The position numbers were made by a program, and so were the translations under genes. The notes beneath the pieces were generated by a model. The model was given only the letters and a program-made list of their open reading frames with translations, was not told where the DNA came from and did not search any database. A DNA stretch of 42,975 nucleotides from a virus (taxonomy: Duplodnaviria > Heunggongvirae > Uroviricota > Caudoviricetes): the IMG/VR virus record IMGVR_UViG_2563366932_000014. The stretch is one strand, 5' to 3'. The first letter of the stretch is position 1; the number at the start of each line of letters is the position of its first letter. Positions 2,716-42,648 of this stretch are shown here, piece by piece.

Positions 2716-3735
<1,020 letters not shown>

Positions 3736-6720: not shown

Positions 6721-6849
6721 CTAGGTCTCGGACTTTGTACCGCTTATCTTGTCTTCAAAAATCAGCTCGCATCCTGCACAGTTCAGCGCATTACGTTGTA
6801 GATCTGTGTTCTGGTCATTTGTTGACACACGTACATAGCCAATAAGCAT
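6721..6849 (-). pseudogene. truncated 5' remnant of a Pin/Gin/Cin-type serine DNA invertase gene
   Basis: minus strand encodes MLIGYVRVSTNDQNTDLQRNALNCAGCELIFEDKISGT.., then the match is lost and a stop follows; the remaining ~150 codons of an invertase are absent. Confidence 0.7.
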
Positions 6850-25493: not shown

Positions 25494-25993
25494 GATTCGA
25501 TGATTTTCAGAAACGGGTTAGTGGCTTTCTTCTGCCCCGCCAGGCCAATCAGACGCTGACGGCTGCTGGGGTCGAGTCCGAGCATTGCCCCCGTGCTGCT
25601 CATCTCGGACTCCTGTTCTTTTTTGGCTGTCAGCTCCGGATTTTTGACCCTGCCGCCCATTGCGCCGGTGATGGTATTGCCCTGTATGGCAATATTTTTC
25701 ACAGCACGTCGCCAGAACTCATAGGCCACGCACCACCGCTCAAGCACCGCGAGGTCAGTCACGCACAGCAGGCCCTGACCGCAGAGTTCTTTGGTTGTCA
25801 GTTGCCACATGATCGTGGCGAGAGGGAGATCTTCTTCAGCGAACCACTCCGGTGGCTCAACACCTTTGATGGGCGTAAAAACAGGTTCATCTTTGTTCAG
25901 GGCTCGCTTGCCGGGGTTTCCGGCCAGCGCCTTGCGCGCCGTTGGCTTGGGGCGACGCCCGGAACGCCCCGCCGTTCCAGCCATATGCGGCAC
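25490..25993 (-). CDS. terminase small subunit (P27-like)
   Basis: 167-aa ORF overlapping the large-subunit start. Confidence 0.7.
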
Positions 25994-26109
25994 TCCTGGT
26001 TAAATTTCATTTTTCGCGGGTATAAAAAAACGATGGGGCGGGCAGTCCGGAAGACGTCAGGTCACAGGGATTTGACCCGCCCCTCCCCTCAGAAAGTTGA
26101 GAATTATTA

Positions 26110-26460
26110 TCACTTCAGTCGTTCACGGGCCGTCTTCGCCTTATGACACGGCCAGCACAGGCTCTGCAGATTGCAGTCTGCATCAGTGCCGCCATGCGCT
26201 TTAGGGATGATGTGGTCAACGGTTTTCGCCTCACGCACCACACCGACATGCAGGCACAACTGACACAGGCCTTTGTCACGCTTCAGCACGCGCGCGCGGA
26301 TAACATCCCACTTCGAACCGTAGCCGCGCTGGTGACGGGATTGTCCTGGCTTGTATTGTTTCCAGCCTTCGCTTTTGTGGCTTTCACAATAGCCTGACGG
26401 ATCAGTGGTGGTTTGGCGGCAGCCGCGAACGCGGCAGGCTTTTGGGGTTCGTGGGGGCAT
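26110..26460 (-). CDS. HNH endonuclease (packaging-associated)
   Basis: Cys pairs plus ..DHIIPKAHGGTD..N..LC..CH.. HNH motif, upstream of terminase. Confidence 0.8.
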   Translation of the reverse strand: MPPRTPKACRVRGCRQTTTDPSGYCESHKSEGWKQYKPGQSRHQRGYGSKWDVIRARVLKRDKGLCQLCLHVGVVREAKTVDHIIPKAHGGTDADCNLQSLCWPCHKAKTARERLK

Positions 26461-26562
26461 TTAAAGTGGGATCTAACTCTAATAATTTAAAAAATTTAAT
26501 TGGGTCTTGATATTAATCACATAGACTCAATGCTCTTTAGTTCTTACATAGGTGGTTGTATT

Positions 26563-27003
26563 ATGAGTATCCCCAGTTTAGATGTTCATAAAGTTGTTAA
26601 GTGCGCAGAGCATAAAAAGGCTTTAGATGCAATATCTCTCAAACTTAAGAATAACATTATTGACTCAAGCTCTGAATACGATTTTCTTGGCGACACAATA
26701 ATTTTCAATAAAGATAAAAAAAATAGGTTAACCCTCAAACTTTCAACATATGAACTAGAACTTATTTTCAAAGAAACACTGCTAGTCATTGATGAAGCTC
26801 CTGTATTGAAGTTTGCTGCCATTGACCCAACCGATGAAAATAACAACGAGCTGATTGATTTATTTTTATCCAAAGGTGGATTTATTTATATTAGAGAATA
26901 CAAATCCGAGCCACATTATGAGTATGGCGACACTTCTCTATTTTTACATATACTTGACGCTACTCTTAAAGAGCTTAAATCTGCAAACAAAATATCCTAT
27001 TAA
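26563..27003 (+). CDS. hypothetical protein, AT-rich insertion transcribed against the late operon
   Basis: ORF with AGGTGG RBS before the ATG at 26563 (listed ORF starts at 26500); very AT-rich by inspection; no recognisable family. Confidence 0.5.
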   Translation: MSIPSLDVHKVVKCAEHKKALDAISLKLKNNIIDSSSEYDFLGDTIIFNKDKKNRLTLKLSTYELELIFKETLLVIDEAPVLKFAAIDPTDENNNELIDLFLSKGGFIYIREYKSEPHYEYGDTSLFLHILDATLKELKSANKISY

Positions 27004-27109
27004 ATAAATTTTTGCTAACATAGCCCCGCGCCATGACAAGATTTTCTGTTCTAGATGCAAGGGCTATGTGTGAATATCTATAAACAAAAACCCCATCCGG
27101 TGATTTTTG

Positions 27110-27361
27110 TCATTTTTTAGCCATCTCAATTGCGGCATCAAAAAGTCGTTCAAGAATAAAATCAGGGTACTGTAATTTTTCTTGCTCGATATGAAGCTCA
27201 TAAATTTTCCCTTCCCACTCCCATTTAAAATTAAATCCAGAAGCAGAAGGTGCGAAATGTGTTTTAGCTTTAGGGTTAGCGTAACCAGCAACAGTCAACA
27301 CATCAAACTTAAAATCTTGAGGTTTAATACGCATAATCATATCCTTTGCCAAGTTCATCAT
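27110..27361 (-). CDS. hypothetical protein (83 aa)
   Basis: AT-rich ORF between the lysis cassette and packaging genes. Confidence 0.4.
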   Translation of the reverse strand: MMNLAKDMIMRIKPQDFKFDVLTVAGYANPKAKTHFAPSASGFNFKWEWEGKIYELHIEQEKLQYPDFILERLFDAAIEMAKK

Positions 27362-27431
27362 TATTCTTCGCGATTATAAAACAATGAATAAAATCATTAA
27401 AGCATAGACGTTAAATATCCTCAAAATGTGA

Positions 27432-27869
27432 TTAGTTGGGACATTGCGTCCTGATATACTCCTGCAAGTAATTGACCTGTGAGGTTATCTTGTCGATTCC
27501 ACTTCGGAGACGGTAATAATGGAGTTCAGCATCTGCTGTAAGTCTAGGGCTTTCTCCATCGCCCATGCCGCTGGCTCCGGTCGTTGACTTTGTACAGGTG
27601 GCGGCGACTTGCAGGCGCTTATGCCCAGCAGAAACATCAGCACGAAGACTTTCGATAGTCGCATTAGCATCAGCAAGCTCCTTTGTATATCTGGCATCGA
27701 GTTCAGCTACATTACGTTGACGCTTCTGCATATCAGCGATGATGGATGTGGCTTTATCGCGCTGTACTTTGTAGACGATGGCGTCATCACGGTAATTATC
27801 AACAGCCCATGACAAGCAGACGATGATGCAGATAACCAGAGCGGATATAATCACCGTTACTCTGCTCAT
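27432..27869 (-). CDS. Rz: i-spanin Rz
   Basis: [22 protein letters not shown].. and overall translation closely match lambda Rz (recalled). Confidence 0.85.
27485..27670 (-). CDS. Rz1: o-spanin Rz1 (embedded in Rz in the +1 frame)
   Basis: embedded ORF with lipobox-like ..LLGISAC and proline-rich segment. Confidence 0.65.
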
Positions 27870-28342
27870 ACCTGAATCTCTTTGACCGTTCCGCCGGCTT
27901 CTTTGAATTTTTCAATCAGGCTGTCAGCCTTATGCTCAAACTGACCATAACCAGCTCCCGGCAGTGAAGCCCAGATATTGCTGCAACGGTCGATAGCCTG
28001 ACGAATATCACCGCGATCAATCATCGGTAAAGCACCACGCTCTTTAATCTGCTGCAGTGCAACAGCATCCTGGCTTTTTGGAGAGAAGTCTTTCAGTCCA
28101 AGCTGTTTACGGTATGCATCCCACCAGCGGGAAAGAAGCTGGTAGCGCCCGGCAGCCGTTGATTTGAGTTTTGGGTTTAGCGTGACAAGTCTGCGAGGGT
28201 GATCGGAGTAATCAGTGAATATTTCTCCGCCCACAATGACGTCATAACCATGATTACGTGTCGGTTGTAGCCCATTATCCGTTCCTTCTGACCAGGCCAC
28301 CATATCGAGGAAAGCTTTACGCTGAGGATTAAGATTTTGCAT
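27866..28342 (-). CDS. R: endolysin (lambda R-type lytic transglycosylase)
   Basis: ..[39 protein letters not shown].. near-identical to lambda R (recalled). Confidence 0.9.
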
Positions 28343-28733
28343 TTTTCACCCCTGTCAGTCGTTCCCAGAAGTACGTCAGTGCAACCGAACCCATCGCACC
28401 ACTAATCCCCGCAGTTGCGAGAATCATGTAAATACTGAATCCACTTTCGATACTGATTAGGCCACCAATAACACCGGTGAATCCTGATACAACTATCTGA
28501 GCGAGGGTATTTATCCAGCTCCACGTTGCTTTACTCTGCTTCACATCAATCAGGTAACGGACAAGCCCCCCCCAACCTGCGATGATCAGCAAAACAAGCC
28601 AGAACGCTCCGGCAAGATTCTCTTTTTCGTGCATATGAATAGCCGCAGTTTCGCCTCCGACAGAAAATCGGAGCGTGAAATGATATGTTGATTTATTATT
28701 AATTCGAAAATTACATTCTAATTCATCAGGCAT
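28329..28733 (-). CDS. holin (class I-like, three TM segments)
   Basis: three hydrophobic segments and charged C-terminus, overlapping the endolysin start; true start may be the internal Met (..MHEKENLAG..). Confidence 0.6.
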   Translation of the reverse strand: MPDELECNFRINNKSTYHFTLRFSVGGETAAIHMHEKENLAGAFWLVLLIIAGWGGLVRYLIDVKQSKATWSWINTLAQIVVSGFTGVIGGLISIESGFSIYMILATAGISGAMGSVALTYFWERLTGVKNAKS

Positions 28734-28785
28734 TGATGATTTTATAATAATAAAGGCCGTTCGTTACGGCCTTTATTATTGATAT

Positions 28786-29121
28786 TTATTTTACATCCCA
28801 AGGTAGTTCCTCAAGAGAGAAGACTAATTCATTATCAATAATTTCGTATTCTGCATAACCTTCAACCTCTCCTGAGAAGTTATTGTCAACGCATCCTTCA
28901 TAATAGCTATATGGTGCTATAAAGTGAAACCCATATTCATCTATCTCTGTGATTTCAAAATTGTAGTAATCGTAAGAATATCGAATATCATCATCAGAAA
29001 TAGAACTAAGTACATAGTTATTAAATTTATCGGAATGCTTAACGATAAGTTCTGACAACGCGTCAAGATTCTCTGGAGAGATATTTCCTAACGGTAATCT
29101 GTACTCAACGGCATTAATCAT
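28786..29121 (-). CDS. hypothetical acidic, aromatic-rich small protein (111 aa)
   Basis: AGGAGG RBS; AT-rich; lies between the late terminator and holin. Confidence 0.5.
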   Translation of the reverse strand: MINAVEYRLPLGNISPENLDALSELIVKHSDKFNNYVLSSISDDDIRYSYDYYNFEITEIDEYGFHFIAPYSYYEGCVDNNFSGEVEGYAEYEIIDNELVFSLEELPWDVK

Positions 29122-29174
29122 ACAACCTCCTTTTTAACTGATATGAGGTTATATAATGTGTTTCAGTACAAGTA

Positions 29175-29199
29175 AATAAAAACCCGCTCAACAGCGGGT
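29175..29199 (-). terminator. rho-independent terminator downstream of the late promoter (tR'-like)
   Basis: minus strand acccgc tgttga gcgggt followed by TTTTTATTT. Confidence 0.6.
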
Positions 29200-29246
29200 T
29201 CGTGAAAATTATCAACGGCAGACATACAAAGCCCATCGTTGAGAAA

Positions 29247-29275
29247 ATCTTATCCATATTTTTTGAAAAATGCAA
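29247..29275 (-). promoter_or_regulatory. candidate late promoter (pR'-like) downstream of the Q-like gene
   Basis: minus strand TTGCAT - 17 nt - TAAGAT between the Q stop and the terminator; weak -10. Confidence 0.3.
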
Positions 29276-29306
29276 GCTTCATGTCACTATCTTCGGCGAA
29301 AATCAC

Positions 29307-30101
29307 TTATCTCGTCACCTTTCTCAATTGTGTTTCAGCATATGCTTCTTCCTGCCAGCACTTTGTTACTAGTTTATCAATTACGTCTGCATATCCTTTG
29401 TACCACTGATAATCAGTCAGGTCTGGAACCAGCTTCTGGACATGACGTCGTGCCAGTGTAGTCGGTAAACGGCTAAACCGGTTTCCATTGCAACGCCCAC
29501 AAGTCTTATAAACAGGCGTGCCATGAAGCCGGGTTCTTTTTTCATCCAGGACAATACCTTTACCCTTACACCCTCTGCACGCCGTGCTGACTTCTCCCTT
29601 GCCATGACAATGCTGACACAGTTCCTTCACCCACTCTTCTTTGATAACGGATTCCCCGCTTCTGGAATGTTTCACCACTTCGCGCAATACATTATGAAAT
29701 CCAGTACCAGTACAATGCTCACAGCGAGCCTTACTTGCCGCAGACCTGGAATAATCAGCAAAGGCAAAATTCACAAGGTAAGGGATGATCTGTAACCGGG
29801 TTTCTTCACTCAATTTGTTCAATGTCGGGTTATCCAGTGCCATCGCGTAATTGAGCAGGCCTTCAATCGCAAACTGAGGATCCTGAACACCAACTTTTGC
29901 CAGGAATAAGGCAAACCCAAGCGGTGCTTTCGACTGCACCATCCCCTGCGCAGCCATTACATCCGTAATTGTTAAACCACCCGAGCCTGTCGCCGATGCG
30001 TCATCGCTCAATTTTGGAGATTTTGGGGAGTAATATTTCGGTAAGGCTTCAAGGTTCATGCTCGTTCTCCACTTACACCAGTACGCCAATTGCCAGCGCA
30101 C
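29307..30101 (-). CDS. putative late antiterminator (Q-like) with four CxxCxGxG zinc-finger repeats
   Basis: position directly upstream of late promoter/terminator and lysis genes; CEHCTGTG, CQHCHGKG, CRGCKGKG, CGRCNGNR repeats. Confidence 0.5.
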   Translation of the reverse strand: MRWQLAYWCKWRTSMNLEALPKYYSPKSPKLSDDASATGSGGLTITDVMAAQGMVQSKAPLGFALFLAKVGVQDPQFAIEGLLNYAMALDNPTLNKLSEETRLQIIPYLVNFAFADYSRSAASKARCEHCTGTGFHNVLREVVKHSRSGESVIKEEWVKELCQHCHGKGEVSTACRGCKGKGIVLDEKRTRLHGTPVYKTCGRCNGNRFSRLPTTLARRHVQKLVPDLTDYQWYKGYADVIDKLVTKCWQEEAYAETQLRKVTR

Positions 30102-31068
30102 GATCGATAAAACGAAATATCAGCTCCAGCTGGGAGCCATACATCTCTTCAAATGCCACGGTATCCGCATGCAGCTCGTCGTGATGCTTTCTGCACAAAG
30201 GCAACACAAAAAGGTCATGCGCTTTTGTACCCATTCCACCCTGTCCGTGGCCTATCAGGTGGTGGGGATCATCAGCGGGCTTTCCACAACATGCACACGA
30301 CTGTGTCTTAACCCAGCGCGTGTACTTTTCATTAACCCAGCGGCGACGTTTTGGGCGTAACATAAAAGACTCCGGCGACTCCGGATCCACTTTCAGCGCC
30401 AGCACCTTTTTCGCCTTATCCTGGATGATGCTGGTGGCAGGAACCGAAGGCACAAGGTCACTTTCCCGGGTGACAGACGGCACAACAGGCTTCGGTAATC
30501 TCAGTGCCTTACGGGCTGCACTTTCCGGTAAGGCATCCGCCAGATCATTACGAACCAGCCACCAGCACAGTTCCGGCATTGTCACAACGTGACTGTCATC
30601 AAAACCGAGATCCCGACGCACAACAGACAACACCCAGCGGGCACAGTTATCCGTTGCCATTGATTCCAGCCGTTCCGTGAACTGATCGCGAAGCAGGTTA
30701 TCGCAGTGCCAGCACAGACGGATTGCGCCCGGCGCGTGTCGCATTGTGGTCATGTTCTCGCTGTGCCATCCGGAATGAGGCCACTGACAGCCCTTTTCAC
30801 GAAGTAACCAGCTTTCAAGACATTCCACACCCCCCGCACGACGAATAACTGCCTCATTGCGGAACACGGCCCGAATGGCAGGATCATCCGCCAGCGGTTG
30901 TGATGCCGCCGGAACGGCACCACTGGCAAAAGATGAATAACGTTCCGGCTCAGGCTCCAGCAGGACACGCCCCTGCATAAACAGGGGCATCAGCTCTGAA
31001 CCGGGCCTGAACAATACGATCCCCATACGCGGGGCAATTTCAGGGGTCAGTAGTGCTCTCACGGTCAC
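30073..31068 (-). CDS. DUF968-like prophage protein with C-terminal HNH-like Cys/His motif
   Basis: 331-aa ORF; ..CACCGKPADDPHHLIGHG..CRKHHDELH.. Confidence 0.55.
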   Translation of the reverse strand: MTVRALLTPEIAPRMGIVLFRPGSELMPLFMQGRVLLEPEPERYSSFASGAVPAASQPLADDPAIRAVFRNEAVIRRAGGVECLESWLLREKGCQWPHSGWHSENMTTMRHAPGAIRLCWHCDNLLRDQFTERLESMATDNCARWVLSVVRRDLGFDDSHVVTMPELCWWLVRNDLADALPESAARKALRLPKPVVPSVTRESDLVPSVPATSIIQDKAKKVLALKVDPESPESFMLRPKRRRWVNEKYTRWVKTQSCACCGKPADDPHHLIGHGQGGMGTKAHDLFVLPLCRKHHDELHADTVAFEEMYGSQLELIFRFIDRALAIGVLV

Positions 31069-31069
31069 C

Positions 31070-31867
31070 TCAATGAACGGTATCGAGCAGCTTTAACAGC
31101 TCAGGGAATCGGGATTCGAAGAAATGCGGCTGCGTCTCGCGCGGATTTGCAGGACTGGTGATGTTCTTGCCGAACATGCAGCCTTTCGCCGTCAGCGACC
31201 AGAATTTTTTGATGTTGTTAATCGCTGTACGGCTGTATCGTTCGCGCTGTTCGACGATCCCCAGCTTCGCCATCTGGTGATATGCCTGATTAGCCGTAAG
31301 GCGGATACCATACTGTTTCAGCAGTGCACTCAGCGACAGTGTCGGGCGACTTGAGCCATCAGGCGCGTCAGCAGGAGCATCAATGGCATAGCGCGGTGCC
31401 AGATTCGGTAAGCCAACAGCCTCCTGAAGCTTCTGACAGGCTCCAAGCACTGATGAGTTAGACAGGTTTAATTCCCGGCGCATAAAGTCCAGCAGGATCA
31501 CGCCAGCCTGCATCTTGTCAGCAGCCTGCCCGGATAATTTTTCCGGTGTGCTGGTTACCATATCGAAAGTACGGATCACCTTCAGATGGAATGACGGGCT
31601 TATCCACATTGCATAGGCATACACCAGTTCTTTGCAGACATACGTCCCCTGGTTATTTCCGCCACGAATAACGTTAACTGGCTCTATATTGACCGAGTTG
31701 CAAATCTGCAACTCGCTTATTAAACGTTCAGTTTGCTCATTGCGGAGCCAGAATGCAGGCTTATGCTTATCCAGAGAACCGGCAGCCCTGTGCAGATCGT
31801 TCAGGCTGTAACGCCCATAAGCATCACGACGAACTTCAATACCATCAATAACCATCAGATTATTCAT
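31070..31867 (-). CDS. KilA-N domain protein (possible antirepressor)
   Basis: 265-aa ORF with KilA-N-like N-terminal region (recalled). Confidence 0.55.
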   Translation of the reverse strand: MNNLMVIDGIEVRRDAYGRYSLNDLHRAAGSLDKHKPAFWLRNEQTERLISELQICNSVNIEPVNVIRGGNNQGTYVCKELVYAYAMWISPSFHLKVIRTFDMVTSTPEKLSGQAADKMQAGVILLDFMRRELNLSNSSVLGACQKLQEAVGLPNLAPRYAIDAPADAPDGSSRPTLSLSALLKQYGIRLTANQAYHQMAKLGIVEQRERYSRTAINNIKKFWSLTAKGCMFGKNITSPANPRETQPHFFESRFPELLKLLDTVH

Positions 31868-31886
31868 ACTTCGTTTCTCCTCTTAA

Positions 31887-32276
31887 TCAGGCAGCTGCAC
31901 CCGCCGTTTTCTCGTACTTACTGATAGTGATCTCGACCTTCCCTTCCGGGATAACCGGTCCCCACTCCACCAGCATTCTTTTCACCTGACTGTCGTCTTC
32001 CCACACACCCGCGTGGGTCAGGGCGTCAAACAGCGCCTTGTTATAGTTGTCCAGATCGCGGATCCGGTTATCCGGAGGAAACAACACGATCTCCACTGAA
32101 GCAGGTGCCGACGTTGGTTTTGGCAGACGACGTAACTGCTCAACTATTGCTGCACACGCCGCGCTCTGGAATTTGCGCCCCGCCGCGCTTATCAGGCTCT
32201 TACCAGCAAACGCCCCTTTGTTGGGGTGTCGCCAGTACGTGTTCACGCTGGGCGGAAACGGCAGAATCAGCTTCAT
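31887..32276 (-). CDS. rusA: Holliday junction resolvase RusA
   Basis: ..LPFPPSVNTYWRH.. and ..RDLDNYNKALFDALT.. match RusA motifs. Confidence 0.8.
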   Translation of the reverse strand: MKLILPFPPSVNTYWRHPNKGAFAGKSLISAAGRKFQSAACAAIVEQLRRLPKPTSAPASVEIVLFPPDNRIRDLDNYNKALFDALTHAGVWEDDSQVKRMLVEWGPVIPEGKVEITISKYEKTAGAAA

Positions 32277-32599
32277 ACTTTCAGGCCCCTCTCATGTAAC
32301 CAGTGGGCTGCACGCAGCCTGGCGTTTTCCTTACCGGCAAGCAGTGAGCGGATAATCCCGACCGCCTCGCTGTCGTCGTCCTTCACCGCGGTATGAAGAG
32401 TGATACCCCGGGCCACGCCACGCTTTATCGTGATGACGCCTTTTTTCTCCAGTGCTCGAAGATGCTCCACCGCTGCATTCACTGAACGGTATCCCAGCAT
32501 GGTTGCCACCTCCTGATTGGTTGGCGGGAAGCCACGTTCTTTCTGATAAGAAATCAGCATATCCAGCACCTGCTGCTGGCATTGAGTTAACGTCGTCAT
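32273..32599 (-). CDS. LexA N-terminal DNA-binding-domain-like protein lacking a peptidase domain
   Basis: ..QQQVLDMLISYQKERGFPPTNQEVATMLGYRSVNAAVEHLRALEKKGVI.. parallels the LexA winged-helix domain (recalled); only 108 aa, no S24 domain. Confidence 0.6.
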   Translation of the reverse strand: MTTLTQCQQQVLDMLISYQKERGFPPTNQEVATMLGYRSVNAAVEHLRALEKKGVITIKRGVARGITLHTAVKDDDSEAVGIIRSLLAGKENARLRAAHWLHERGLKV

Positions 32600-33249
32600 G
32601 CCGCCATCTCCCTGACCAGTTTTTCCGCCTGCTGGCGAACCTGCGCCAGAAACGCCTCACCACATGCCTCAAGTTCATCGCGCCCGATGTAGCTGATTGC
32701 CGGTCCCTTCCAGGTCTTGTCAAAAACAGCAATAGCACCAGCGAAGAAAGCTCCTGTCGGCACCTGCTTCTCGTCTTTCGGGATAAACCAGACAGGCAGT
32801 TCAAAACCAATACGCCCGCGAATAAAAGCAATATGATCTGCATCTTCCGGCCACCACACTTCGCTGGTGGCAGCTTTGATCAGGAAAACATAGCGCCCGC
32901 CTTTATCACGCATGGCACTGGCATGCTTCATGATGTAACGCATGCCGGTGATGTATTGCCCCTCATGCTGACTGGCGCGGCTGTATGGGGGATTACCAAA
33001 GGCAGCACCTTTAAGCTCCGCAAGACGTTCTGACCAGTCATGCGCCAGCGCATTGTCTTCCGCCGTGTAATACGCGGCACATTTGGCGTTACCACCGTCG
33101 GTGAACAGATCCAGAACAAACGGGCCAAACAGGGTGTTAATTCCCCAGAAAATGTTGTCCGGCGTGCGCCACTGATCGCCCACTTCCTTCAGTTCATGGG
33201 CTGGTTTGTTCCGCAGCTCCACCAGCGCCTGGCAATATTTATTACTCAT
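32596..33249 (-). CDS. phage-type DNA N6-adenine methyltransferase
   Basis: ..FGNPPYSRAS.. motif; start ATG overlaps the upstream stop (TAATG); listed ORF extends to 33282. Confidence 0.75.
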   Translation of the reverse strand: MSNKYCQALVELRNKPAHELKEVGDQWRTPDNIFWGINTLFGPFVLDLFTDGGNAKCAAYYTAEDNALAHDWSERLAELKGAAFGNPPYSRASQHEGQYITGMRYIMKHASAMRDKGGRYVFLIKAATSEVWWPEDADHIAFIRGRIGFELPVWFIPKDEKQVPTGAFFAGAIAVFDKTWKGPAISYIGRDELEACGEAFLAQVRQQAEKLVREMAA

Positions 33250-33743
33250 TAAGCCCCCACGTAATTCCCTGACAGATACCACTCTTCACCCGATGCAGCG
33301 CGCTTGCTGCTTTTCCGTAAGCACCGCTCACGACGCGCCAGAAAATTGTTTCGTTCTGGCTGGGAGTGGCTTTCACGGAATGCCGCCATCCACACGGTTG
33401 CAGCACGACGGTATAAACCCCTGGACTCCAGTTCTTCAGCCTGGCGGGTCAGGCACAAAATCACCCGTGGATCGTTAGTGCCGACATAGAAATTGCGCAC
33501 AGGTCTGGTTTCTCGAACTGGTTGTGGTTCCGGTTCCTGCGCTCTCTCAGTCAGGCGCGGGAAATGTCTGCGTGTATCTCCTTCACAACGGTGAGCCACA
33601 CGCCCACTCTGACGTAACTTGCTTGCTGACTGCAGAACGCGCTGTCGTGAGTAACCTGCAAAAGCATCCGCAATGTCACCGGAAGTACACCCCGGATGGG
33701 CTTCAATGAATTTCTGAACGTCATTTAACAGACTCATGATCAC
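33249..33743 (-). CDS. hypothetical protein (164 aa)
   Basis: ORF coupled between the replication initiator and the methylase; no ATPase motif seen. Confidence 0.4.
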   Translation of the reverse strand: MIMSLLNDVQKFIEAHPGCTSGDIADAFAGYSRQRVLQSASKLRQSGRVAHRCEGDTRRHFPRLTERAQEPEPQPVRETRPVRNFYVGTNDPRVILCLTRQAEELESRGLYRRAATVWMAAFRESHSQPERNNFLARRERCLRKSSKRAASGEEWYLSGNYVGA

Positions 33744-34680
33744 CCCCTGAATCCTGCCGGGATCTGGCTGTAGTCCACGTTGTCGTAACTGGCTTTGAAG
33801 TACGGGTCCTCGCGTTTTTCGGTGTACGTACTTACGGACGGCGATAAGCGCAGGGAAAGCTCATCCCATTTTTCCCGCAGCTTCGACGGGCTGAGCACGT
33901 TACGGCACCAGAACGGATCGCGGCTGACGCGGCTGTACATCTCGCAGATTTGTTTGTGAGTACGACCATCCTGCACACACATCAGGCGAATTTCGTTTGC
34001 CCAGGCTGTCCAGTTCGGTTCTTTGGGACGAACCACCTCGCCGTCACATTCGGCAGCCTGCTCGTACAGGGCGATGATTTTTTCCAGAGCCACTGTGCGC
34101 AGGTCAAATCATCCTGCGTTCCCCACTGGCGCTTTTTAGGGCTGAATACAACAGCATCAGGATGGCGAGTTAAAAACTCCTGTTCAGCCGTCTGCGTGTC
34201 CGGTTGCGAAGCGTCCGGACGAGAAGTTTTTTTATCTGACGGATCATGTTTTGATTTTACTGACGGATCCCCGCCAGATTCTGACGGGTGAAAACCCGCT
34301 TTTTTGCCAGATTTCGACGCATCAAATTTTGACGGGGCAGATTTTGATGCGTCAGATTTTGACGGGTCAGAATCTGACAGTTGAGAAAATGCCGCTGCCT
34401 GAAGCTTCGCAACGTTAAGCTGATAAACATTCGACGCATTGCGGTTACCCTGGCGACGCGCCTTACGCGTTAACCAGCCTTCTGCTTCCAGCCGTGCGAT
34501 AGCCGTTCTGACGGTACTCATCCCCGCGCCAATCTGGCGGGCAATGGTTTCAATTGATGGCCAGCACACACCTTCGTCATTACTGAAATCAGCCAGGCGG
34601 GCCATAATTGCCACGCTGGATAACTTCATGCCTGACGCAGCGCAACCATCCCATACATAGCCGGTTAATTTAGTGCTCAT
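33740..34680 (-). pseudogene. replication initiator (lambda O-like), reading frame split by an apparent 1-nt frameshift near 34106
   Basis: 232-aa N-terminal ORF with winged-helix segment and iteron-encoded linker; the coherent C-terminal frame (..FDLRTVALEKIIALYEQAAECDGEVV..) is open only downstream of the stop at 34109-34111 and overlaps the N-terminal frame. Confidence 0.55.
34232..34380. repeat. iteron array (candidate replication origin) inside the initiator gene
   Basis: about 8 imperfect direct copies of AGATTTTGACGG-like units. Confidence 0.6.
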
Positions 34681-34689
34681 GACCGACCT

Positions 34690-35028
34690 CTATTTCCCTG
34701 AATTTACGACGAAACTGTTCGAGCGGACTGAAGCATTCATGCTCATAGCCTTCGCGGAGGTAGATAACCCGTTGTGTTTCCGGTTCCCAACGAATGACTC
34801 TGACGGGCACTCCGTAGTGATCTTTGAACCAGCGGTTAACTTGTCGCAAAGGACTGTCTCCTTCTGCCGGTTGAAATCACCCACAGCCCACTCAGCAAAG
34901 CTGTGGGTTACAATTTCCCTGTCACCTGGTACATTTACTGCATAGCAATACTCCACCTTCGCTTTTCCACCCGGTACAGGAAGCGCAATCAGTTGCGAGC
35001 GACGGTAGTGTGTTGTTAAACTGTTCAT
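34690..35028 (-). CDS. hypothetical protein, possibly frameshifted
   Basis: listed ORF tail is Ser/Asn-rich; an alternative frame from about 34855 (..[48 protein letters not shown]..) ends at 34670 overlapping the initiator start. Confidence 0.4.
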
Positions 35029-35588
35029 GCGTTAGTTTCTCCACAGTCACGACACGCCACGGCGCCCGGAGCTGCACACTCGCGGGCGTCACTACTTTCT
35101 GAAACGCAAAAGATTTTGTAGACCAGTGCTGCATGCTCCTGCAGCTTCGAAATTGAGAGGTACAGCTCATCGTTAATTGCTGTCTTCTCATGCGGTTCCA
35201 CTACACCGTCTTCAATTGCTGAACGAATCTGTTTTGAATAACTGCCGATCTGTTCAATGACCTCCAGCAGGCGTTGGTTGATATCGGCGTTGTCCACATC
35301 CTCGACGTCAGGAAGAGACACAAAGACGCCATTTGCAGACTGCGCCACAGCATCAGCAATGAAGTGAGTGCCACCAGCACGCTGTAAAACCATTGCCCAT
35401 CCCAGCGGGAAAATCTGATCGCCATCTGCACGAAGGCGGTTGAATAAAGCGTTTTCTGTTACATCGAGCCAGTCAGCCGCTTCAGCGTAACCACCCGGCA
35501 ACGCCGCGATCGTTTTTCTGACAGCTTTCACGTACCACTCAGGCTGTTTTTCTATTTTCCAGTGATGCTTACCCACGATTAGCCTCAT
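35025..35588 (-). CDS. CII-like / YdaT-type regulatory protein (tentative)
   Basis: 187-aa ORF directly downstream of the cro-like gene; family call from position and recalled similarity. Confidence 0.4.
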
Positions 35589-35619
35589 CGTTCTGTGGTT
35601 AAAAATTGAAAGTGTTCTG

Positions 35620-35820
35620 CTAATCTTTCGGATAGATATCCGGTCTTAAGTCAGATTTCGTAATTGCACCTGACGTGCATTGCTCAAGTTTTTTAGCCAG
35701 CACAAAACTGGCTTTTTTATAGCCATTGAAAACCAGCCGTAAGTAGCCAGGTGTTGAGCCAACTTTTCCGGCCAACTCGCCCTGCTGTTCTTTGGTTAAA
35801 GAGTCCCAATACGCTTTCAT
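35620..35820 (-). CDS. Cro-like repressor (YdaS-type HTH)
   Basis: 66-aa product MKAYWDSLTKEQQGELAGKVGSTPGYLRLVFNGYKKAS..; divergent from the cI-like gene; listed ORF has a spurious N-terminal extension. Confidence 0.6.
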   Translation of the reverse strand: MKAYWDSLTKEQQGELAGKVGSTPGYLRLVFNGYKKASFVLAKKLEQCTSGAITKSDLRPDIYPKD

Positions 35821-35826
35821 ACAATG

Positions 35827-35895
35827 TGTACCTCCGGTGTACATATTACATGATTGAAATGAACCTTCAAGATACTTGTACCTTAACGGTACAAG
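35827..35895. promoter_or_regulatory. operator region between cro-like and cI-like genes with two GTAC-containing palindromes
   Basis: tgtac-N7-gtaca at 35827-35843 and the 21-bp near-perfect palindrome cttgtaccttaacggtacaag at 35875-35895. Confidence 0.5.
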
Positions 35896-35910
35896 GGTTT
35901 TAATTTCGTT

Positions 35911-36585
35911 ATGAAAACAATCCATGACATCCGGCGGTCTAACGCCAGAAAACTGAGAGATGGTGTTGGCGGGAATTCTTCCTTTGCCACTATGATTGAT
36001 CGCGAGCCAACCCAGACCAGCAGGTTTATGGGAGATGGTGCTACTAAAAATATCGGTGACAGCATGGCACGACACATCGAAAAATGTTTCGACCTGCCTG
36101 TCGGATGGCTCGATCAAGAACACCAGACAACGAACATCACAAAAAAACCTGATGTTTCAATCACTAATAAACAAATCACATTAGTCCCTGTCATATCATG
36201 GGTACAGGCCGGAGCATGGAAAGAAGTTGGATATTCTGAGGTTGATTTGAGCACAGCAGAAACGTATCCCTGCCCTGTACCCTGTGGGGAAATGACTTAT
36301 ATCTTGCGGGTGATAGGTGATTCAATGATTGATGAGTACCGCCCGGGAGACATGATTTTTGTCGATCCTGAAGTACCTGCCTGCCACGGTGACGACGTTA
36401 TTGCATTGATGCACGATACAGGTGAAACCACCTTCAAAAGGTTGATAGAAGATGGGACACAGCGTTATCTCAAAGCGTTAAACCCAAACTGGCCTGAGCC
36501 TTACATTAAGATCAACGGTAATTGCTCTATAATTGGTACTGTGATTTTCTCAGGAAAACCAAGAAGATACAAAATCAAAGCCTAA
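35911..36585 (+). CDS. cI-like repressor (HTH plus S24 LexA-like autopeptidase domain)
   Basis: N-terminal HTH; ..VQAGAW.. candidate Ala-Gly cleavage site; ..GDSM.. Ser and downstream Lys of S24 peptidases. Confidence 0.8.
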   Translation: MKTIHDIRRSNARKLRDGVGGNSSFATMIDREPTQTSRFMGDGATKNIGDSMARHIEKCFDLPVGWLDQEHQTTNITKKPDVSITNKQITLVPVISWVQAGAWKEVGYSEVDLSTAETYPCPVPCGEMTYILRVIGDSMIDEYRPGDMIFVDPEVPACHGDDVIALMHDTGETTFKRLIEDGTQRYLKALNPNWPEPYIKINGNCSIIGTVIFSGKPRRYKIKA

Positions 36586-36596
36586 TCAATGTTTAT

Positions 36597-36620
36597 GAAC
36601 CTGCTTCGGCAGGTTTTTTT
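36597..36620 (+). terminator. rho-independent terminator of the cI-like gene
   Basis: aacctgc ttcg gcaggtt followed by 7 T. Confidence 0.7.
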
Positions 36621-36624
36621 ATAC

Positions 36625-36662
36625 TTGACAATGTACCTTTGGGATACATAATGTACCCAAGA
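36625..36662 (+). promoter_or_regulatory. candidate pL-like promoter with operator-like GTAC half-sites
   Basis: TTGACA - 16 nt - CATAAT; AATGTACC repeated twice across spacer and -10. Confidence 0.4.
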
Positions 36663-36787
36663 GAAACAACAAACAGGCAGGACGCCCACGAAGTAGCCGC
36701 CTGGGGCATATGAAGTCCAGGATGATTCGTTAGCAACAAAAAAGCGCCCTATAGGACGCTTCGCTCTTTAACAATCTGGATGACTTA

Positions 36788-37300
36788 TTACTCAGATTTG
36801 AACTTTGGTTCTGGCAAAAGAGGAGGAGTTGAGTCCTCGAATCGTAGCCAGTGCTCCCAGATATCGTGGGATTGTAATTCCAGAAGACCAATTTGACGTG
36901 ATGCAACTGCAGTGCCAGCTATAGTTCCTCCTGCATAATCAACCTGGACGGACTTTGACGCTTTCTCAATTAATTCTGTCCAAGCTTCACTTTCCGCGTT
37001 AAAAGAAGCAGTTAATTCCTGCAGACGCTGTGGATCATCCTTGTTGTCTTGTTTCAAACGATTCAGGGCGGCCACCGAATACTTATTCTTAACCCAACTA
37101 ACCTGAGCTAACTGAACTCTCTGACAAGCGTCCATATCAGTAGTTGTTTCCTGAGGCATATCAAAGCAGGAAATAAAAAAAGTCTCAACACCATCATTTA
37201 GACTACTGCTCGGCTGGTTCAAAGCATCAGAAGCATTGGATGCTATCGGTATTATCAGTGCTACCGACAGAATCAAACGTTTAACATAAATCGCTCCCAT
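36788..37300 (-). CDS. secreted DUF1311 (LprI-like lysozyme-inhibitor family) protein
   Basis: N-terminal signal-peptide-like segment (..LILSVALIIPIASNA); family call from recalled similarity; GAGGGG RBS. Confidence 0.55.
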   Translation of the reverse strand: MGAIYVKRLILSVALIIPIASNASDALNQPSSSLNDGVETFFISCFDMPQETTTDMDACQRVQLAQVSWVKNKYSVAALNRLKQDNKDDPQRLQELTASFNAESEAWTELIEKASKSVQVDYAGGTIAGTAVASRQIGLLELQSHDIWEHWLRFEDSTPPLLPEPKFKSE

Positions 37301-37586
37301 TTAATTATCCCCTCTAAGAACAGAGTCATCCAGATTAGCCGAATCCTTGTTGTTGGGGAATAACCAGGCCCACCTCGCCTGATGTGGCTAAAAGCAGGCA
37401 CATAACAGCTAAGTATTTTCAACCAGAGAGAATCCTTAGCGTTGTGGTGAATGCGGCTCAGCGCACGCGGGTTAAGGTTGAGGCTGACAGTCGACCTTCT
37501 GTGGATACCCACCCGCCTGGTGTGCAACCTTCGCCAGGCACCGGGAGGCACCCGGCACCACAACTTTATGCTGTGTGTAGTCCTGG

Positions 37587-37632
37587 CGGTACCAGCTTGT
37601 ACCCTTGCTTCCGGCTGGTACCGCTCTTTTTA
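37587..37632 (+). terminator. strong intrinsic terminator within the early-left leader
   Basis: perfect 11-bp stem gcggtaccagc/gctggtaccgc, 17-nt loop, then TCTTTTT. Confidence 0.55.
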
Positions 37633-37768
37633 CAAAACAGAGAAGAGCATCACCGGACGACGGGCTCATAACCCAATCCACCCGGGCGGCTGCCACCGCA
37701 GGTGTTCTTCTCTGTTTTGTGGAGAAACCAACCGACCTTGCAGGGTCGATATGATGAGGAGCAGCAAA

Positions 37769-38131
37769 ATGGCTAGCGAACGCAGTACCAACGTGCAGGA
37801 ATTTATCGGGGAGCTGGACGGCGGCGTATTTGAAACCAAAATCGGCGCAGTTCTCAGTGAAGTCGCTTCCGGTGTGATGAACACGAAAACCAAAGGTAAG
37901 GTCTCGCTCAACCTGGAAATCGAACCGTTTGATGAGAACCGTGTGAAAATAAAACACAAACTCTCATATGTTCGTCCGACTAACCGCGGGAAAATTTCCG
38001 AAGAAGACACCACCGAAACGCCGATGTATGTCAATCGCGGTGGTCGCCTGACTATTCTGCAGGAAGACCAGGGACAATTACTGACTCTTGCCGGTGAACC
38101 TGACGGAAAACTCCGCGCAGCAGGTCATTAA
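37769..38131 (+). CDS. hypothetical early protein (120 aa)
   Basis: GAGGAG RBS then ATG at 37769; the listed 226-aa ORF's N-terminal part is Arg/Cys-rich translation of the structured leader. Confidence 0.5.
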   Translation: MASERSTNVQEFIGELDGGVFETKIGAVLSEVASGVMNTKTKGKVSLNLEIEPFDENRVKIKHKLSYVRPTNRGKISEEDTTETPMYVNRGGRLTILQEDQGQLLTLAGEPDGKLRAAGH

Positions 38132-38196
38132 TATCGTTCTTAATTAACTGATTATTTATCTCATCACTGAATATCTTTATATAGTGAGGACTTATT

Positions 38197-39021
38197 ATGT
38201 CTCAGAACTTAGACGCAACCGCAATTAATCAAATCCATGCCCTTATTTCTGCTCAGGGTGTTAATGAAATTATCAGTAAGATTGGTGCCGACGCAGTGGC
38301 ATTACCTGAAAATTTCCGCATTCATGATCTGGAAAAATTTAATTTAAATCGCTTCCGTTTCCGTGGTGCGCTTTCCACTGCCAGCATCGATGACTTTACC
38401 CGTTATTCTAAAGATCTTGCGGATGAAGGCACCCGCTGCTTTATCGATGCCGATAATATGCGTGCCGTCAGTGTGCTTAACCTGGGTACTATTGATGAGC
38501 CTGGTCACGCAGATAACACCGCCACTCTCAAACTGAAAAAGACAGCACCGTTCTCTGCTCTGTTGTCTGTTAACGGCGAGCGTAACTCCCAGAAGTCACT
38601 GGCAGAATGGATTGAAGACTGGGCCGACTACCTTGTGGGCTTTGATGCTAATGGTGATGCCATTCAGGCAACAAAAGCGGCTGCGGCAGTCCGTAAAATC
38701 ACGATTGAAGCAAACCAGACCGCTGATTTTGAAGACAATGACTTCAGCGGCAAACGCTCCCTGATGGAGTCTGTCGAAGCGAAGACCAAAGATATTATGC
38801 CAGTGGCATTTGAATTTAAATGCGTTCCGTTTGAAGGCCTGAAAGAACGTCCGTTTAAATTACGCCTCAGCATTATCACTGGCGATCGTCCTGTACTGGT
38901 TCTGCGCATTATTCAGCTGGAAGCAGTGCAGGAAGAAATGGCTAACGAATTTCGTGATCTGCTTGTTGAGAAATTCAAGGACAGCAAAGTAGAAACCTTT
39001 ATTGGTACTTTTACCGCCTGA
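38197..39021 (+). CDS. DUF2303 / YfdQ-like prophage protein (tentative family)
   Basis: 274-aa ORF with GTGAGG RBS; family from recalled similarity. Confidence 0.5.
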
Positions 39022-39148
39022 TTTCATTACTGCAAATGCCCCTGCGGGGGCATTTATGGAAACGTAATTGACTCAATAATCGCCGGATGGTGAGGGCTTT
39101 CTTTTACCAGAATTCAGCGCGGTGCAGCGCATATACGTGGAGAACAAA

Positions 39149-39673
39149 ATGTCATTTATTAAAACTTTTTCCGGGAAGCATTTTTATTATGACAGGATAA
39201 ATAAAGACGACATCGTTATTAACGATATCGCGGTTTCTCTTTCAAATATCTGTCGCTTTGCAGGACATCTTTCACATTTCTACAGCGTCGCCCAACATGC
39301 GGTGCTTTGCAGCCAACTGGTACCGCAGGAATTTGCTTTTGAAGCGTTAATGCATGATGCAACAGAAGCGTATTGCCAGGACATCCCGGCGCCACTGAAA
39401 CGCCTTCTTCCTGACTATAAACGGATGGAAGAAAAAATAGACGCCGTAATCCGTGAGAAATACGGGTTACCCCCGGTTATGAGTACGCCCGTGAAATATG
39501 CCGATCTCATCATGCTGGCAACCGAACGCCGCGATCTCGGGCTTGATGATGGCTCTTTCTGGCCCGTACTGGAAGGTATCCCGGCAACAGAGATGTTCAA
39601 AGTTATTCCACTGTCGCCAGGCCATACCTATGGGATGTTTATGGAACGCTTTAAAGAGTTAACTGAGTCGTAA
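39149..39673 (+). CDS. HD-domain phosphohydrolase
   Basis: H..H and ..LMHDATEAY.. HD motif; GGAG RBS before the ATG at 39149; listed ORF starts at 39122. Confidence 0.6.
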   Translation: MSFIKTFSGKHFYYDRINKDDIVINDIAVSLSNICRFAGHLSHFYSVAQHAVLCSQLVPQEFAFEALMHDATEAYCQDIPAPLKRLLPDYKRMEEKIDAVIREKYGLPPVMSTPVKYADLIMLATERRDLGLDDGSFWPVLEGIPATEMFKVIPLSPGHTYGMFMERFKELTES

Positions 39674-39781
39674 AAATCAGCACGTACGAATTCAAACTCT
39701 GCCATAAAAGAACATATAAGTAATTTATTAACATATAGATATAGGTTATATTACAAATTGAAAAATTATTGGAGAGCAACA

Positions 39782-40648
39782 ATGAATCAAAATCCATTCT
39801 CATTCTATGACTTTCTTGGATATTTAATACCAGGTGGTTTTTTTATCCTATTAATGTATTTCTGTGGTTTGACATTCGATCTAGATATTGTTATTGACTT
39901 AAGTGAATTGCTCAGAGGTCAAAGTCAAATCTTTGGCATTTTGAACTACGCTTCAATAGTTATTATATCTTATATAGCTGGACATTTTATTTCTATCACG
40001 TCAGCATTTTTTATCGAAAAATACATGAATAAAGAATTAGGATATCCTTCCAAATATCTATTTAAAAAATTGATAGATACCTCAGAAAGCATTTGTAGCC
40101 CATCATGCGATGAGAGAAGCGCTGATAAAAAAACAAAAATAAAGAATCGCATAATCAAATGCGTATTATGTCCAATAATACTATGGGATTTTATAACACA
40201 AAAACTATGTTATTCTCAATCTCTACCATTTCATTTAGCTAATACAACATGGTTAATGATCAAAGAAGGTTATGAGAAAAAGTTCATAACAAATCGCCAA
40301 TTATTACAAGATAAAAACGGACTTGATGATGATCTCTTCAGATTGGCATATCATTATGTTTATGAGTTTTCAAAACAACATCAAACAAAAATTCAAAACT
40401 ATGTTGCATTATATGGTTTTTGCAGAAACATATGTTTAATCTTTATAATTTCATTTTGGGTATCAGTTCCAACCTTTATTTATCGATTATGTACTCATAG
40501 TGATTATCTTTATAGTTTACTTTCAATAATGCTTAGCTTTTTCTTCGTCTATGTTTTCTATGTTGGTTTTGTTAAATTTTATAGAAGATATACTTTAGAA
40601 GTATTAATGGCATTTGCTGTACTTCAAAGTAACGACACTATTCGTTAA
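39782..40648 (+). CDS. very AT-rich four-TM membrane protein of unknown function
   Basis: two N-terminal and two C-terminal hydrophobic helices around a ~140-aa soluble region; GGAGAG RBS before the ATG at 39782; listed ORF starts at 39758. Confidence 0.55.
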   Translation: MNQNPFSFYDFLGYLIPGGFFILLMYFCGLTFDLDIVIDLSELLRGQSQIFGILNYASIVIISYIAGHFISITSAFFIEKYMNKELGYPSKYLFKKLIDTSESICSPSCDERSADKKTKIKNRIIKCVLCPIILWDFITQKLCYSQSLPFHLANTTWLMIKEGYEKKFITNRQLLQDKNGLDDDLFRLAYHYVYEFSKQHQTKIQNYVALYGFCRNICLIFIISFWVSVPTFIYRLCTHSDYLYSLLSIMLSFFFVYVFYVGFVKFYRRYTLEVLMAFAVLQSNDTIR

Positions 40649-40650
40649 TA

Positions 40651-40896
40651 ATGTTGCTCCCGTGTGCAGACGGGATAATGGAGAAACGTATGCTGAACCT
40701 CGATTGTGTTCCTATCTCAACTTATTGCAAAGAAACTGGCGAAACTCCTGAAGCAATAAACAAACGTGTACAGCGCGGTGTTTGGCGTGAAGGTGTTCAG
40801 GTTTTAAAGGTTGAAGGCGTTAAGGAGAGGTGGATTGATCTTAGTGAGGTTGCAAAATGGGCCAGACAAAACTGCTCAAACTACCGCGCGGCGTAA
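40651..40896 (+). CDS. excisionase-like protein
   Basis: small basic protein immediately upstream of and overlapping int; true start may be an internal Met. Confidence 0.55.
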   Translation: MLLPCADGIMEKRMLNLDCVPISTYCKETGETPEAINKRVQRGVWREGVQVLKVEGVKERWIDLSEVAKWARQNCSNYRAA

Positions 40897-42029
40897 CAAT
40901 CAGGAAACACCACCAGGGAGAAACGATCAATATAACTTTCACCTACAAAGGAGTTAGATGTCGTGAGCCGCTTTCCAATCTGGAAGTAACACCAAAGAAC
41001 ATTAAATACGCCGAGCGTACACTCGGCGAAATCCATAATAAGATCGAAAGGGGAACATTCATTTATGCAGAATATTTTCCCCGTTCTGCTCGTTTGAAAA
41101 TTTTTGGTAATGCTGCTGCAAGCAAAACGGTAAAGATGTACCTGGACGAATATCTTGAAATCTGCGAAACAAGAAAACTTTCACCCTCTACGATTGGTGG
41201 CTATAAAAAATGCCGTAGTGCGTTAGCCTCACTTCACATTTGCCCTGCAAGTGAATTAACACCAGCAACCCTGAAAGCGTGGATTCAAAGCCAGAAAACA
41301 ACCTTAAAAACCATTCGCAACCAGTTATCTTTCCTACGGTCAGCACTTGATGAAGCCGTGACCGATGGGGTACTTCAAATTAACCCCGTATCGTTAGTAA
41401 CAGCTTCGCGCTACCAAAGTGATAAGTCAGAAGCAGAAAGCAGCTATGTGGTTGATCCGCTATCACCAGCAGAAGTTGATGCATTACTAGCAGCAGCCGG
41501 AAACAAACAATGGGAAAATCTGTTCCGGTTCGCCATACATACAGGCCTGCGTAGTTCTGAATTATGTGCCCTACGATGGCATGATATCGACTTTGTTGGA
41601 AAAACAGCCCATGTTCAGAGCGCAAGTGTTGTCGGAGTTATCAAAGGAACAAAGACAAAAGCCGGTACCCGTAAAGTTGAACTGACTGAAGAAGCAATGT
41701 TGGCGTTGATAAACCAGAAGCCATTTACATTCATGAAGGATGCTACTGTCTTTGAAGATCCAAAGACCAATAAACCCTGGGCAAGTGCTGATGCAATTAG
41801 GAAAAAAGCATGGGTGCCAACATTGCGAAAAGCAGGTATTCGTTACAGAAACCCATATCAAACCAGGCATACATTCGCCACCAGCCATATCAGCCGGGGA
41901 GCAAACCTGTTTTGGCTTGCGGCTCAAATGGGCCATAAAGGGCCTGAAATGTTATTCAGGCACTATGGACAATACTTGAAAGAGTATGATGGGAGGGCAA
42001 GTATCAAGGATAAAAAGGCTTTATTTTAA
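40857..42029 (+). CDS. tyrosine integrase with N-terminal arm-binding domain
   Basis: N-terminal ..LPRGVTIRKHHQGETINITFTYKGVRCRE..; C-terminal R, H-x-x-R and Tyr (..HTFAT..FRHYGQYL..) motifs. Confidence 0.85.
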   Translation: MGQTKLLKLPRGVTIRKHHQGETINITFTYKGVRCREPLSNLEVTPKNIKYAERTLGEIHNKIERGTFIYAEYFPRSARLKIFGNAAASKTVKMYLDEYLEICETRKLSPSTIGGYKKCRSALASLHICPASELTPATLKAWIQSQKTTLKTIRNQLSFLRSALDEAVTDGVLQINPVSLVTASRYQSDKSEAESSYVVDPLSPAEVDALLAAAGNKQWENLFRFAIHTGLRSSELCALRWHDIDFVGKTAHVQSASVVGVIKGTKTKAGTRKVELTEEAMLALINQKPFTFMKDATVFEDPKTNKPWASADAIRKKAWVPTLRKAGIRYRNPYQTRHTFATSHISRGANLFWLAAQMGHKGPEMLFRHYGQYLKEYDGRASIKDKKALF

Positions 42030-42638
42030 GTCATTATGCCAATCGTCTACTGTTTGAAACCAAATTTTTAACCTTTGCATAAAGGTACGATCCTTTTTGG
42101 GAGGGTGGTACCTTTGAAAAGAAGTATGTAACGCTTCGATAACTCCCATACAAGCATCAATTACTTCTTGTGCTTTAACCGGGCGATCGGCATCTGAAAG
42201 CTTGTGAGCGACCTCACAATCCAGAGTTGCTTTCTCTAGTACAGATGAGAACACCTCGTCAGGTATATACAGTCCTCTGCTTTCCAAAATGCAAATCAGT
42301 TTGGAAACTTGTTGAGCTTTAGCCAAGATAGTTAACAAGTATGAAACAGAAGCCTTTGTTCTATCCTTTTGCAACCTTAACAATCGATGCTTTGATGCTC
42401 TAATTTTAGGTTGAGTTGTCTGACTGAGCCAATAGTTAGAAGAAATATCAGAAATTTCAATAACTAACTTTGAAATAGCATCAATAATTGATTTCGATTC
42501 AGAACGTGTCGCCAGTTTTACAGAATTATTGTACGCAACTCGCCATCCAATGAAAACTAAGCAGACGCTAACTACTGTGATACACCACGAATACTGTCCT
42601 ATTTGTGCTACTAATGACATTGGTTCCGTACTGATCAA
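42021..42638 (-). CDS. membrane-anchored hypothetical protein (205 aa)
   Basis: one N-terminal TM helix; AT-rich; convergent with and overlapping the int stop. Confidence 0.45.
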   Translation of the reverse strand: MISTEPMSLVAQIGQYSWCITVVSVCLVFIGWRVAYNNSVKLATRSESKSIIDAISKLVIEISDISSNYWLSQTTQPKIRASKHRLLRLQKDRTKASVSYLLTILAKAQQVSKLICILESRGLYIPDEVFSSVLEKATLDCEVAHKLSDADRPVKAQEVIDACMGVIEALHTSFQRYHPPKKDRTFMQRLKIWFQTVDDWHNDLK

Positions 42639-42648
42639 CTATCGCCTC

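Follow-up and report, generated by a model that had tools for sequence, protein, structure and literature searches.

The gene considered here lies on the minus strand of the window (the whole stretch of DNA analyzed, 42,975 nt), in a prophage with structural genes approximately 97% identical to those of SfII, SfI, SfIV, SfV and vB_EcoM-689R6. Its position is that of a replication gene in an early-right operon: opposite the divergent repressor gene ymfK, and past the cro-like ymfT, the cII-like ymfL, and then ymfM and a DUF4222 gene (Table 1). The last two overlap by 160 nt in different frames, the DUF4222 ORF (34670-34849) and a 112-residue YmfM homolog (34690-35028, minus strand) both being supported, and the latter differs by few residues from the K-12 'cell division inhibitor YmfM'. 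Downstream genes encode a YfdN/PerC homolog, a Dam methylase, a small (108 aa) protein consisting of a LexA DNA-binding domain with no peptidase domain, and RusA (together 31887-33743), followed by KilA-N, DUF968 and antiterminator genes.

Table 1. Features of the initiator locus, in window coordinates
Feature	Position	Strand	Basis or remark
O-like replication initiator gene, frameshifted	33740..34680	-	941 nt; intact homologs 942 nt, 313 aa (WP_000104933.1)
ORF A, predicted product of the broken allele, 232 aa	33982..34680	-	201 native residues plus 31-residue out-of-frame tail
Out-of-frame tail and stop codon of ORF A	33982-34077	-	
Second open frame (frame of ORF B), native C-terminal 112 codons	33740..34108	-	phrog_391 profile positions 198-298, E 7e-51
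Winged-helix domain (Pfam HTH_36), aa 23-70, putatively origin-binding	34471..34614	-	E 2.7e-11
Lambda-O-like C-terminal domain, aa 182-277 of the intact protein	33851..34137	-	BLASTP against lambda O, E 7e-26
Frameshift site, T6 on the plus strand, A6 in coding sense, codons K200 and K201	34078..34083	.	seven in intact homologs
Putative origin iterons, eight TGACGG-type cores that also encode the D-x-S-K-S linker	34231..34387	.	repeat searches, synonymous conservation, covariation with N-domain
AT-rich segment flanking the iterons on the C-terminal side, proposed unwinding region	34220..34259	.	GC 0.30; T7 run at 34227-34233
yfdN (PerC family), in place of lambda P	33249..33743	-	helicase loader by no search
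DUF4222 gene, upstream, sharing 11 nt with the start of the initiator gene	34670..34849	-	Pfam E 8.6e-19; RefSeq annotation of identical locus
ymfL, CII-like (Phage_CP76) early regulator, same operon	35025..35588	-	
ymfT, Cro-like, first gene of the early-right operon	35620..35820	-	
ymfK, CI-like repressor (LexA family), divergent	35911..36585	+	Peptidase_S24 domain recorded on identical loci

Over the gene region the window shares 98-99.9% identity with one 942-nt gene of phages and complete genomes; an intact version of this gene, encoding 313 residues, is carried by some 1,950 complete E. coli genomes as well as by the isolated phages SfIV and SfII. Annotation of this gene is divided: it is called replication protein O or primosomal protein in SfIV, SfII, vB_EcoM-689R6 and PhiR49_1, and 'helix-turn-helix domain-containing protein' in E. 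coli ATCC 11775, UTI89, S88 and many other complete genomes. The original prediction of a replication initiator proved correct, in that the intact homolog aligns from residue 1 to 313 with the entire phrog_391 'replication initiation O-like' profile (1-298 of 298, E 6e-135), the two fragments in the window cover profile positions 1-199 and 198-298, respectively, and the C-terminal domain is homologous to lambda O. SfIV has been isolated as a phage particle, and its orf41-45 have been named a replication module (PMC3851460). The counterparts in SfIV (gp41), SfII, vB_EcoM-689R6 and PhiR49_1 share 98% DNA identity over the whole gene, the same repeats and an A-run at the same place that is seven bases long in those phages; they differ in having an intact 942-nt ORF. 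The first 78 residues are also identical to the YmfN/oweE fragment of the cryptic prophage e14 of K-12, where the ymfK-ymfT-ymfL-ymfM neighborhood is the same; in e14, however, codon 78 has been joined by a deletion to a fragment of terminase, so that repeats and C-terminal domain alike are lost, whereas the window retains the entire gene with its putative origin and lacks just a single base.

The predicted protein is arranged as an N-terminal HTH_36 winged helix, a linker of D-x-S-K-S repeats and a lambda-O-homologous C-terminal domain. The winged-helix N-terminus had been foreseen from the sequence, and the HTH_36 match is accompanied by weaker Pfam matches to GntR, MarR, PaaX, DnaD_N and RP-C. 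Phage_rep_O, the type to which the lambda O N-domain belongs, gave no Pfam match even at E values up to 1, a search in which HTH_36, GntR, MarR and DnaD_N were all listed. The C-terminal domain aligns with lambda O by BLASTP at 30% identity over 216 aa, with aa 182-277 as the conserved block, and with lambda-group phages by tblastn (E 4e-18); N-terminal parts fail to align in the BLASTP comparison with lambda O. When the intact protein was compared with the sequences of solved structures, the only matches were marginal ones to MarR and PaaX winged helices (E 0.07 or worse), with none for the C-terminal domain, and a search of NCBIfam returned no informative family.

Several searches identified a repeat array where the gene encodes the linker. 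The 15-nt array found by Tandem Repeats Finder, CAGATTTTGACGGGT in 4.3 copies at 34308-34371, was extended by a further repeat search to six copies at 34272-34387, and two TTT(A/T)(T/A)CTGACGGATC copies occur at 34231-34269. Scanning with a regular expression identified eight TGACGG-like cores (34237, 34261, 34282, 34315, 34330, 34345, 34360 and 34375), five of them in 15-nt phase, in keeping with the roughly eight iteron-like repeats at 34232-34380 that had been noticed beforehand. Each unit reads GTCA-N5-TGAC and is dyad symmetric, which is why many short inverted repeats are listed here. Matches to AGATTTTGACGG with up to 2 mismatches number 8 across the 43 kb of the window, where 4.0 are expected, and 5 of the 8 fall within 90 nt on one strand, mostly in 15-nt phase (Poisson estimate approximately 1e-10). 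The segment 34220-34259 has the lowest GC of any 40 nt in the gene. The 15-nt repeat is also a repeat of five codons, so that some of its regularity lies at the protein level. Within the 33-nt gap of the array, on the plus strand and antisense to the gene, a small GC hairpin precedes a run of T (CGGGTGAAAACCCG CTTTTTT, 34285-34298); this hairpin is unconserved in Klebsiella-type homologs. A promoter and terminator scan around the gene returned nothing beyond chance that is relevant to the finding, and an Rfam scan of the whole window returned no element.

A period of exactly five codons, and a copy number that varies from 4 to 7 units among homologs, are what would be expected if the repeats simply reflected, at the DNA level, a pentapeptide linker of low complexity that had expanded by slippage, with the true origin elsewhere. 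We consider this quite improbable, because synonymous positions in the linker are far more conserved than those in the flanking folded domains. This was assessed by codon comparison with Klebsiella phage Kp4872-1, E. coli phage 716R3, Citrobacter phage phiNP and Phi06_2987, which have 86-91% amino acid identity in the N-domain. In the linker, 79-93% of the conserved residues keep the same codon, whereas the corresponding figures are 41-49% for the N-domain and 42-55% for the C-domain, with Fisher p values between 5e-7 and 2e-4 for these four closer homologs and of 0.02 for the more distant KpnBHU6. Within the repeat units serine is encoded by TCA or TCT and lysine by AAA almost without exception, whereas the rest of the gene uses all serine codons, and AAG as well. 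The dyad symmetry of the units, and a location that is that of the origins of lambda, P22 and L, likewise argue against a mere protein-level repeat.

The identity of the repeat also follows the N-domain, not the C-domain. In KpnBHU6 the N-domain has diverged and the gene carries a different 15-nt repeat, AATCTGRACGTYCRG; in mEp460_4F5 the N-domain is unrelated and the repeats are different and 23 nt long, while the C-domain is near-identical from SRPDASQPD onward (about aa 152); and in phiNP and Phi06 the N-domain and repeats are kept and the C-domain is unrelated. N-domain and repeats therefore appear to travel together as a cassette. Modular shuffling of this kind is seen among Klebsiella, Citrobacter and E. 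coli phages (L014-L019), in which one N-domain/repeat cassette occurs with two unrelated C-domains. Because synonymous sites are frozen and repeats and N-domain vary in concert, the linker repeats are most likely the iterons of an intragenic origin, and the earlier suggestion of such an origin is upheld at the level of sequence. In the literature we found no report of iteron binding or origin activity for an initiator of this kind, the SfV, SfII and SfIV reports offering just the statement that orf41-45 form a replication module.

Comparison with characterized phages places this arrangement close to, and also apart from, the lambda O type. In ori-lambda the repeats occupy the central part of the gene and an AT-rich stretch adjoins them on their C-terminal side (PMC7466680), and the locus described here has the same layout: repeats in the linker-coding part next to an AT-rich region, in the gene of a two-domain initiator with a homologous C-domain, located in the early-right operon past cro-like and cII-like genes, with dyad-symmetric repeats in both. 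The differences are that the prophage N-domain is HTH_36 and not Phage_rep_O; that lambda has four iterons of ~19 bp, whereas the prophage has eight short cores, five of them at 15-nt spacing; that O is followed by P in lambda, whereas yfdN/PerC, Dam and LexA-DBD genes stand there in the prophage; and that the prophage copy is frameshifted. Of the proposed likeness to lambda O-type origins, then, the C-domain and the linker repeats stand, and the N-domain type and the P-like partner do not. No P-, DnaC- or DnaB-type partner gene was found adjacent to the initiator, and without a P-like partner the lambda mechanism cannot be transferred wholesale. A second comparison is with gene 18 of P22 and gene 18 of phage L, which encode lambdoid origin-binding proteins and share this layout; the L gene contains six imprecise 11-bp repeats (PMC8022706). 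In these phages, as here, each type of N-domain has its own repeat set inside the gene. Repeat sequence and period differ, and in P22 and L the neighboring gene 12 encodes a DnaB-type helicase, of which the prophage has none.

In the window the initiator gene is split between a 232-aa ORF (33982-34680) and, in another frame, a 117-aa ORF (33740-34093); no obvious ribosome-binding site precedes the GTG at 34093 in the second frame. A one-nucleotide offset had been predicted near 34106, and the shift itself is present, at a site about 25 nt away from that position. Base-by-base comparison of 33700-34720 with ATCC 11775 reveals one T missing from a T7 run as the sole difference, so that in coding sense A7 becomes A6 at codons K200, K201 and I202 and the T6 at 34078-34083 is the actual site. 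Position 34106 marks only the opening of the second frame, immediately past an in-frame stop (34109-34111) that directly adjoins the upper limit of that frame. The product of the broken allele would consist of 201 native residues followed by SSPCTSRLPNVTARWFVPKNRTGQPGQTKFA, the lambda-O-like domain being cut after its first ~20 residues.

Alignment to intact homologs yielded one ORF in each of ATCC 11775, CEA212U, SfIV and mEp460_4F5, from which it follows that the gene in the window is broken by a 1-nt frameshift; two naturally separate genes were rejected, since every intact relative reads as one ORF. A programmed frameshift or transcriptional slippage was rejected as well, because neither the slippery run nor the two-frame split is conserved in homologs (the run is A5 in those of Klebsiella type). 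A one-base change in run length against an otherwise identical intact allele, truncating a conserved domain, is instead the pattern of a homopolymer-slippage pseudogene, and the locus is in this sense an ordinary prophage pseudogene, the frameshifted allele of which is already in public databases.

Such fragments seem to have entered protein family collections also. The phrog_11896 'primosomal protein' profile aligns with the product of the A6 allele including its out-of-frame tail (aa 1-227 to profile positions 1-222 of 225), so this family was apparently built from frameshifted alleles of the initiator gene, and phrog_2357 (124 aa, function unknown) corresponds to the orphan C-terminal part.

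The prediction had left two alternatives, a replication-defective prophage or a sequencing error. If the missing base were an error of sequencing or assembly at a 7-nt homopolymer, the real gene would be an intact one of 313 aa and the prophage competent for replication. A homopolymer is the classic place for an indel error, and when an 81-nt probe across the frameshift site was searched in complete genomes, the segment was present in 1,957 of them (RefSeq) with the A6 form in at most one record. Several carriers of A6 also come from assemblies with other indels nearby (5-10 gapped positions in L004/L020, and 2-3 in L010, L013, L026 and L028), and a product of an A8 form has been seen, once. 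We regard the A-run as a slippage hot spot, and part of the frequency of A6 in the databases is therefore probably error.

For the window itself, the evidence points the other way. The nearest complete genome, CEA212U, differs from the whole 42,975 nt by six mismatches and a single gap, which is the A6 site, and the 15 other homopolymers of at least 7 nt are unchanged; the assembly is therefore not indel-prone, and a generally error-prone assembly was rejected. ATCC 11775, which has A7, matches window positions 22000-42975 exactly but for that one base. Two assemblies from different projects carry A6 and otherwise show no difference from the window in the regions compared: GCA_000407885.1 (scaffold KE136718.1), 100% identical over 23982-42975 (19 kb), and GCA_903975225.1, 100% identical over 33223-42975 (9.8 kb). 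The exact 232-aa product has been deposited from two isolates, E. coli KTE27 and KTE62 (NCBI ELE31613.1 and EOU75245.1), and was found in 19 contigs (45 blocks) of the collection, compared with at least 1,000 contigs for the intact sequence. Further backgrounds with A6 include a CEA212U-like haplotype (L024, L027), two carriers with 5-7 SNPs (L022, L029), and L023, which has 19 SNPs and a different late region. Because two independent assemblies carry the same allele on a haplotype that, in the compared regions, is identical to that of the window, a genuine mutation is now the likelier alternative: the deletion is probably real for this haplotype, and an error in the window sequence is unlikely.

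A recurring deletion in a run of A's raises the further thought that the site might act as a leaky or reversible switch, through -1 ribosomal slippage on AAAAAA or toggling between A6 and A7, leaving the prophage attenuated and not dead. A -1 slip on A6 (K-K, with the last A re-read as ATC) would give ...WKKIIAL..., which is the intact protein, and the same deletion does recur on several haplotypes. The run is unconserved, however, Klebsiella-type homologs reading GGA AAA ATT at this place; essentially all homologs are single in-frame ORFs with no sign of a programmed event; the window contains no Rfam element; and slippage on A6 that is not stimulated is expected to be rare. We think such a switch very unlikely. 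Equally speculative, and put forward as a long shot, is the broader view that the A7 run, struck repeatedly by mutation, works as a reversible on/off switch by which natural E. coli lineages shut down prophage replication, or the loss of which they tolerate, with the origin and the other phage genes left intact. Were that true, rare -1 slippage on A6 would restore the exact wild-type protein, the lysogens would be attenuated and helper-dependent but not dead, and replication of incoming phages with an origin of that type might be disturbed by the truncated, origin-binding fragment.

Our preferred reading is that the locus is probably the replication module of an SfII/SfIV/SfV/e14-type lambdoid E. 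coli prophage in which the initiator has been broken by A7 to A6 slippage and the putative origin is intact. In the intact form, a single 313-aa protein would fill the role of lambda O. Derepression of ymfK would allow the early-right transcript and hence the initiator to be made, and the winged-helix N-domain would bind, as dimers, the GTCA-N5-TGAC repeats inside its own coding sequence. The AT-rich segment adjoining the iterons would then melt, and the lambda-O-like C-domain would recruit the helicase-loading machinery. In the window allele one A of the A7 run (codons 200-202) has been lost, probably by slippage, so that translation would leave frame past K201 and stop 31 codons on, with almost all of the C-domain gone and the cis-acting origin untouched. 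The prophage is thus predicted to be derepressible but unable to start its own theta replication, intact in cis and complementable in trans. It might escape this defect in one of three ways: by reversion of A6 to A7, by infrequent -1 slippage on the A-run, or with the help of a related prophage that provides the same initiator in trans.

Several consequences follow from this reading. An SfII/SfIV-like prophage is flagged as probably unable to replicate alone upon induction. The frameshift accounts for the 232-aa 'replication protein O' and the orphan C-terminal ORF reported by gene callers, and for at least one PHROG family that was apparently assembled from fragments of this sort. The repeats and AT-rich stretch at 34220-34387 provide a concrete origin candidate for a replication module that is very common in E. 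coli and Shigella prophages, and one that combines a lambda-O-like C-domain with the absence of a P-like partner.

Elsewhere in the window, where the prophage cargo region borders its surroundings, a GIY-YIG (LEM-3-like) gene is interrupted by an IS3-family element (2393-3621); no more than about four complete E. coli genomes share this insertion, which is absent from most relatives, ATCC 11775 among them. Four of the six SNPs relative to CEA212U cluster within ~20 nt of a YfdQ-family gene (38292-38310), where ATCC 11775 has the version found in the window, and the cluster looks like a small recombination patch. Further pseudogenes are annotated at the same positions in relatives: a DinI-like pseudogene with a frameshift and an internal stop (4133-4350) and a partial recombinase beside the tail-fiber genes (6727-6849), both annotated in CEA212U only, and a frameshifted hypothetical gene (37444-37754). 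The last of these is also found in ATCC 11775 and CEA212U, in both of which the initiator is intact, and it therefore predates the A6 event.
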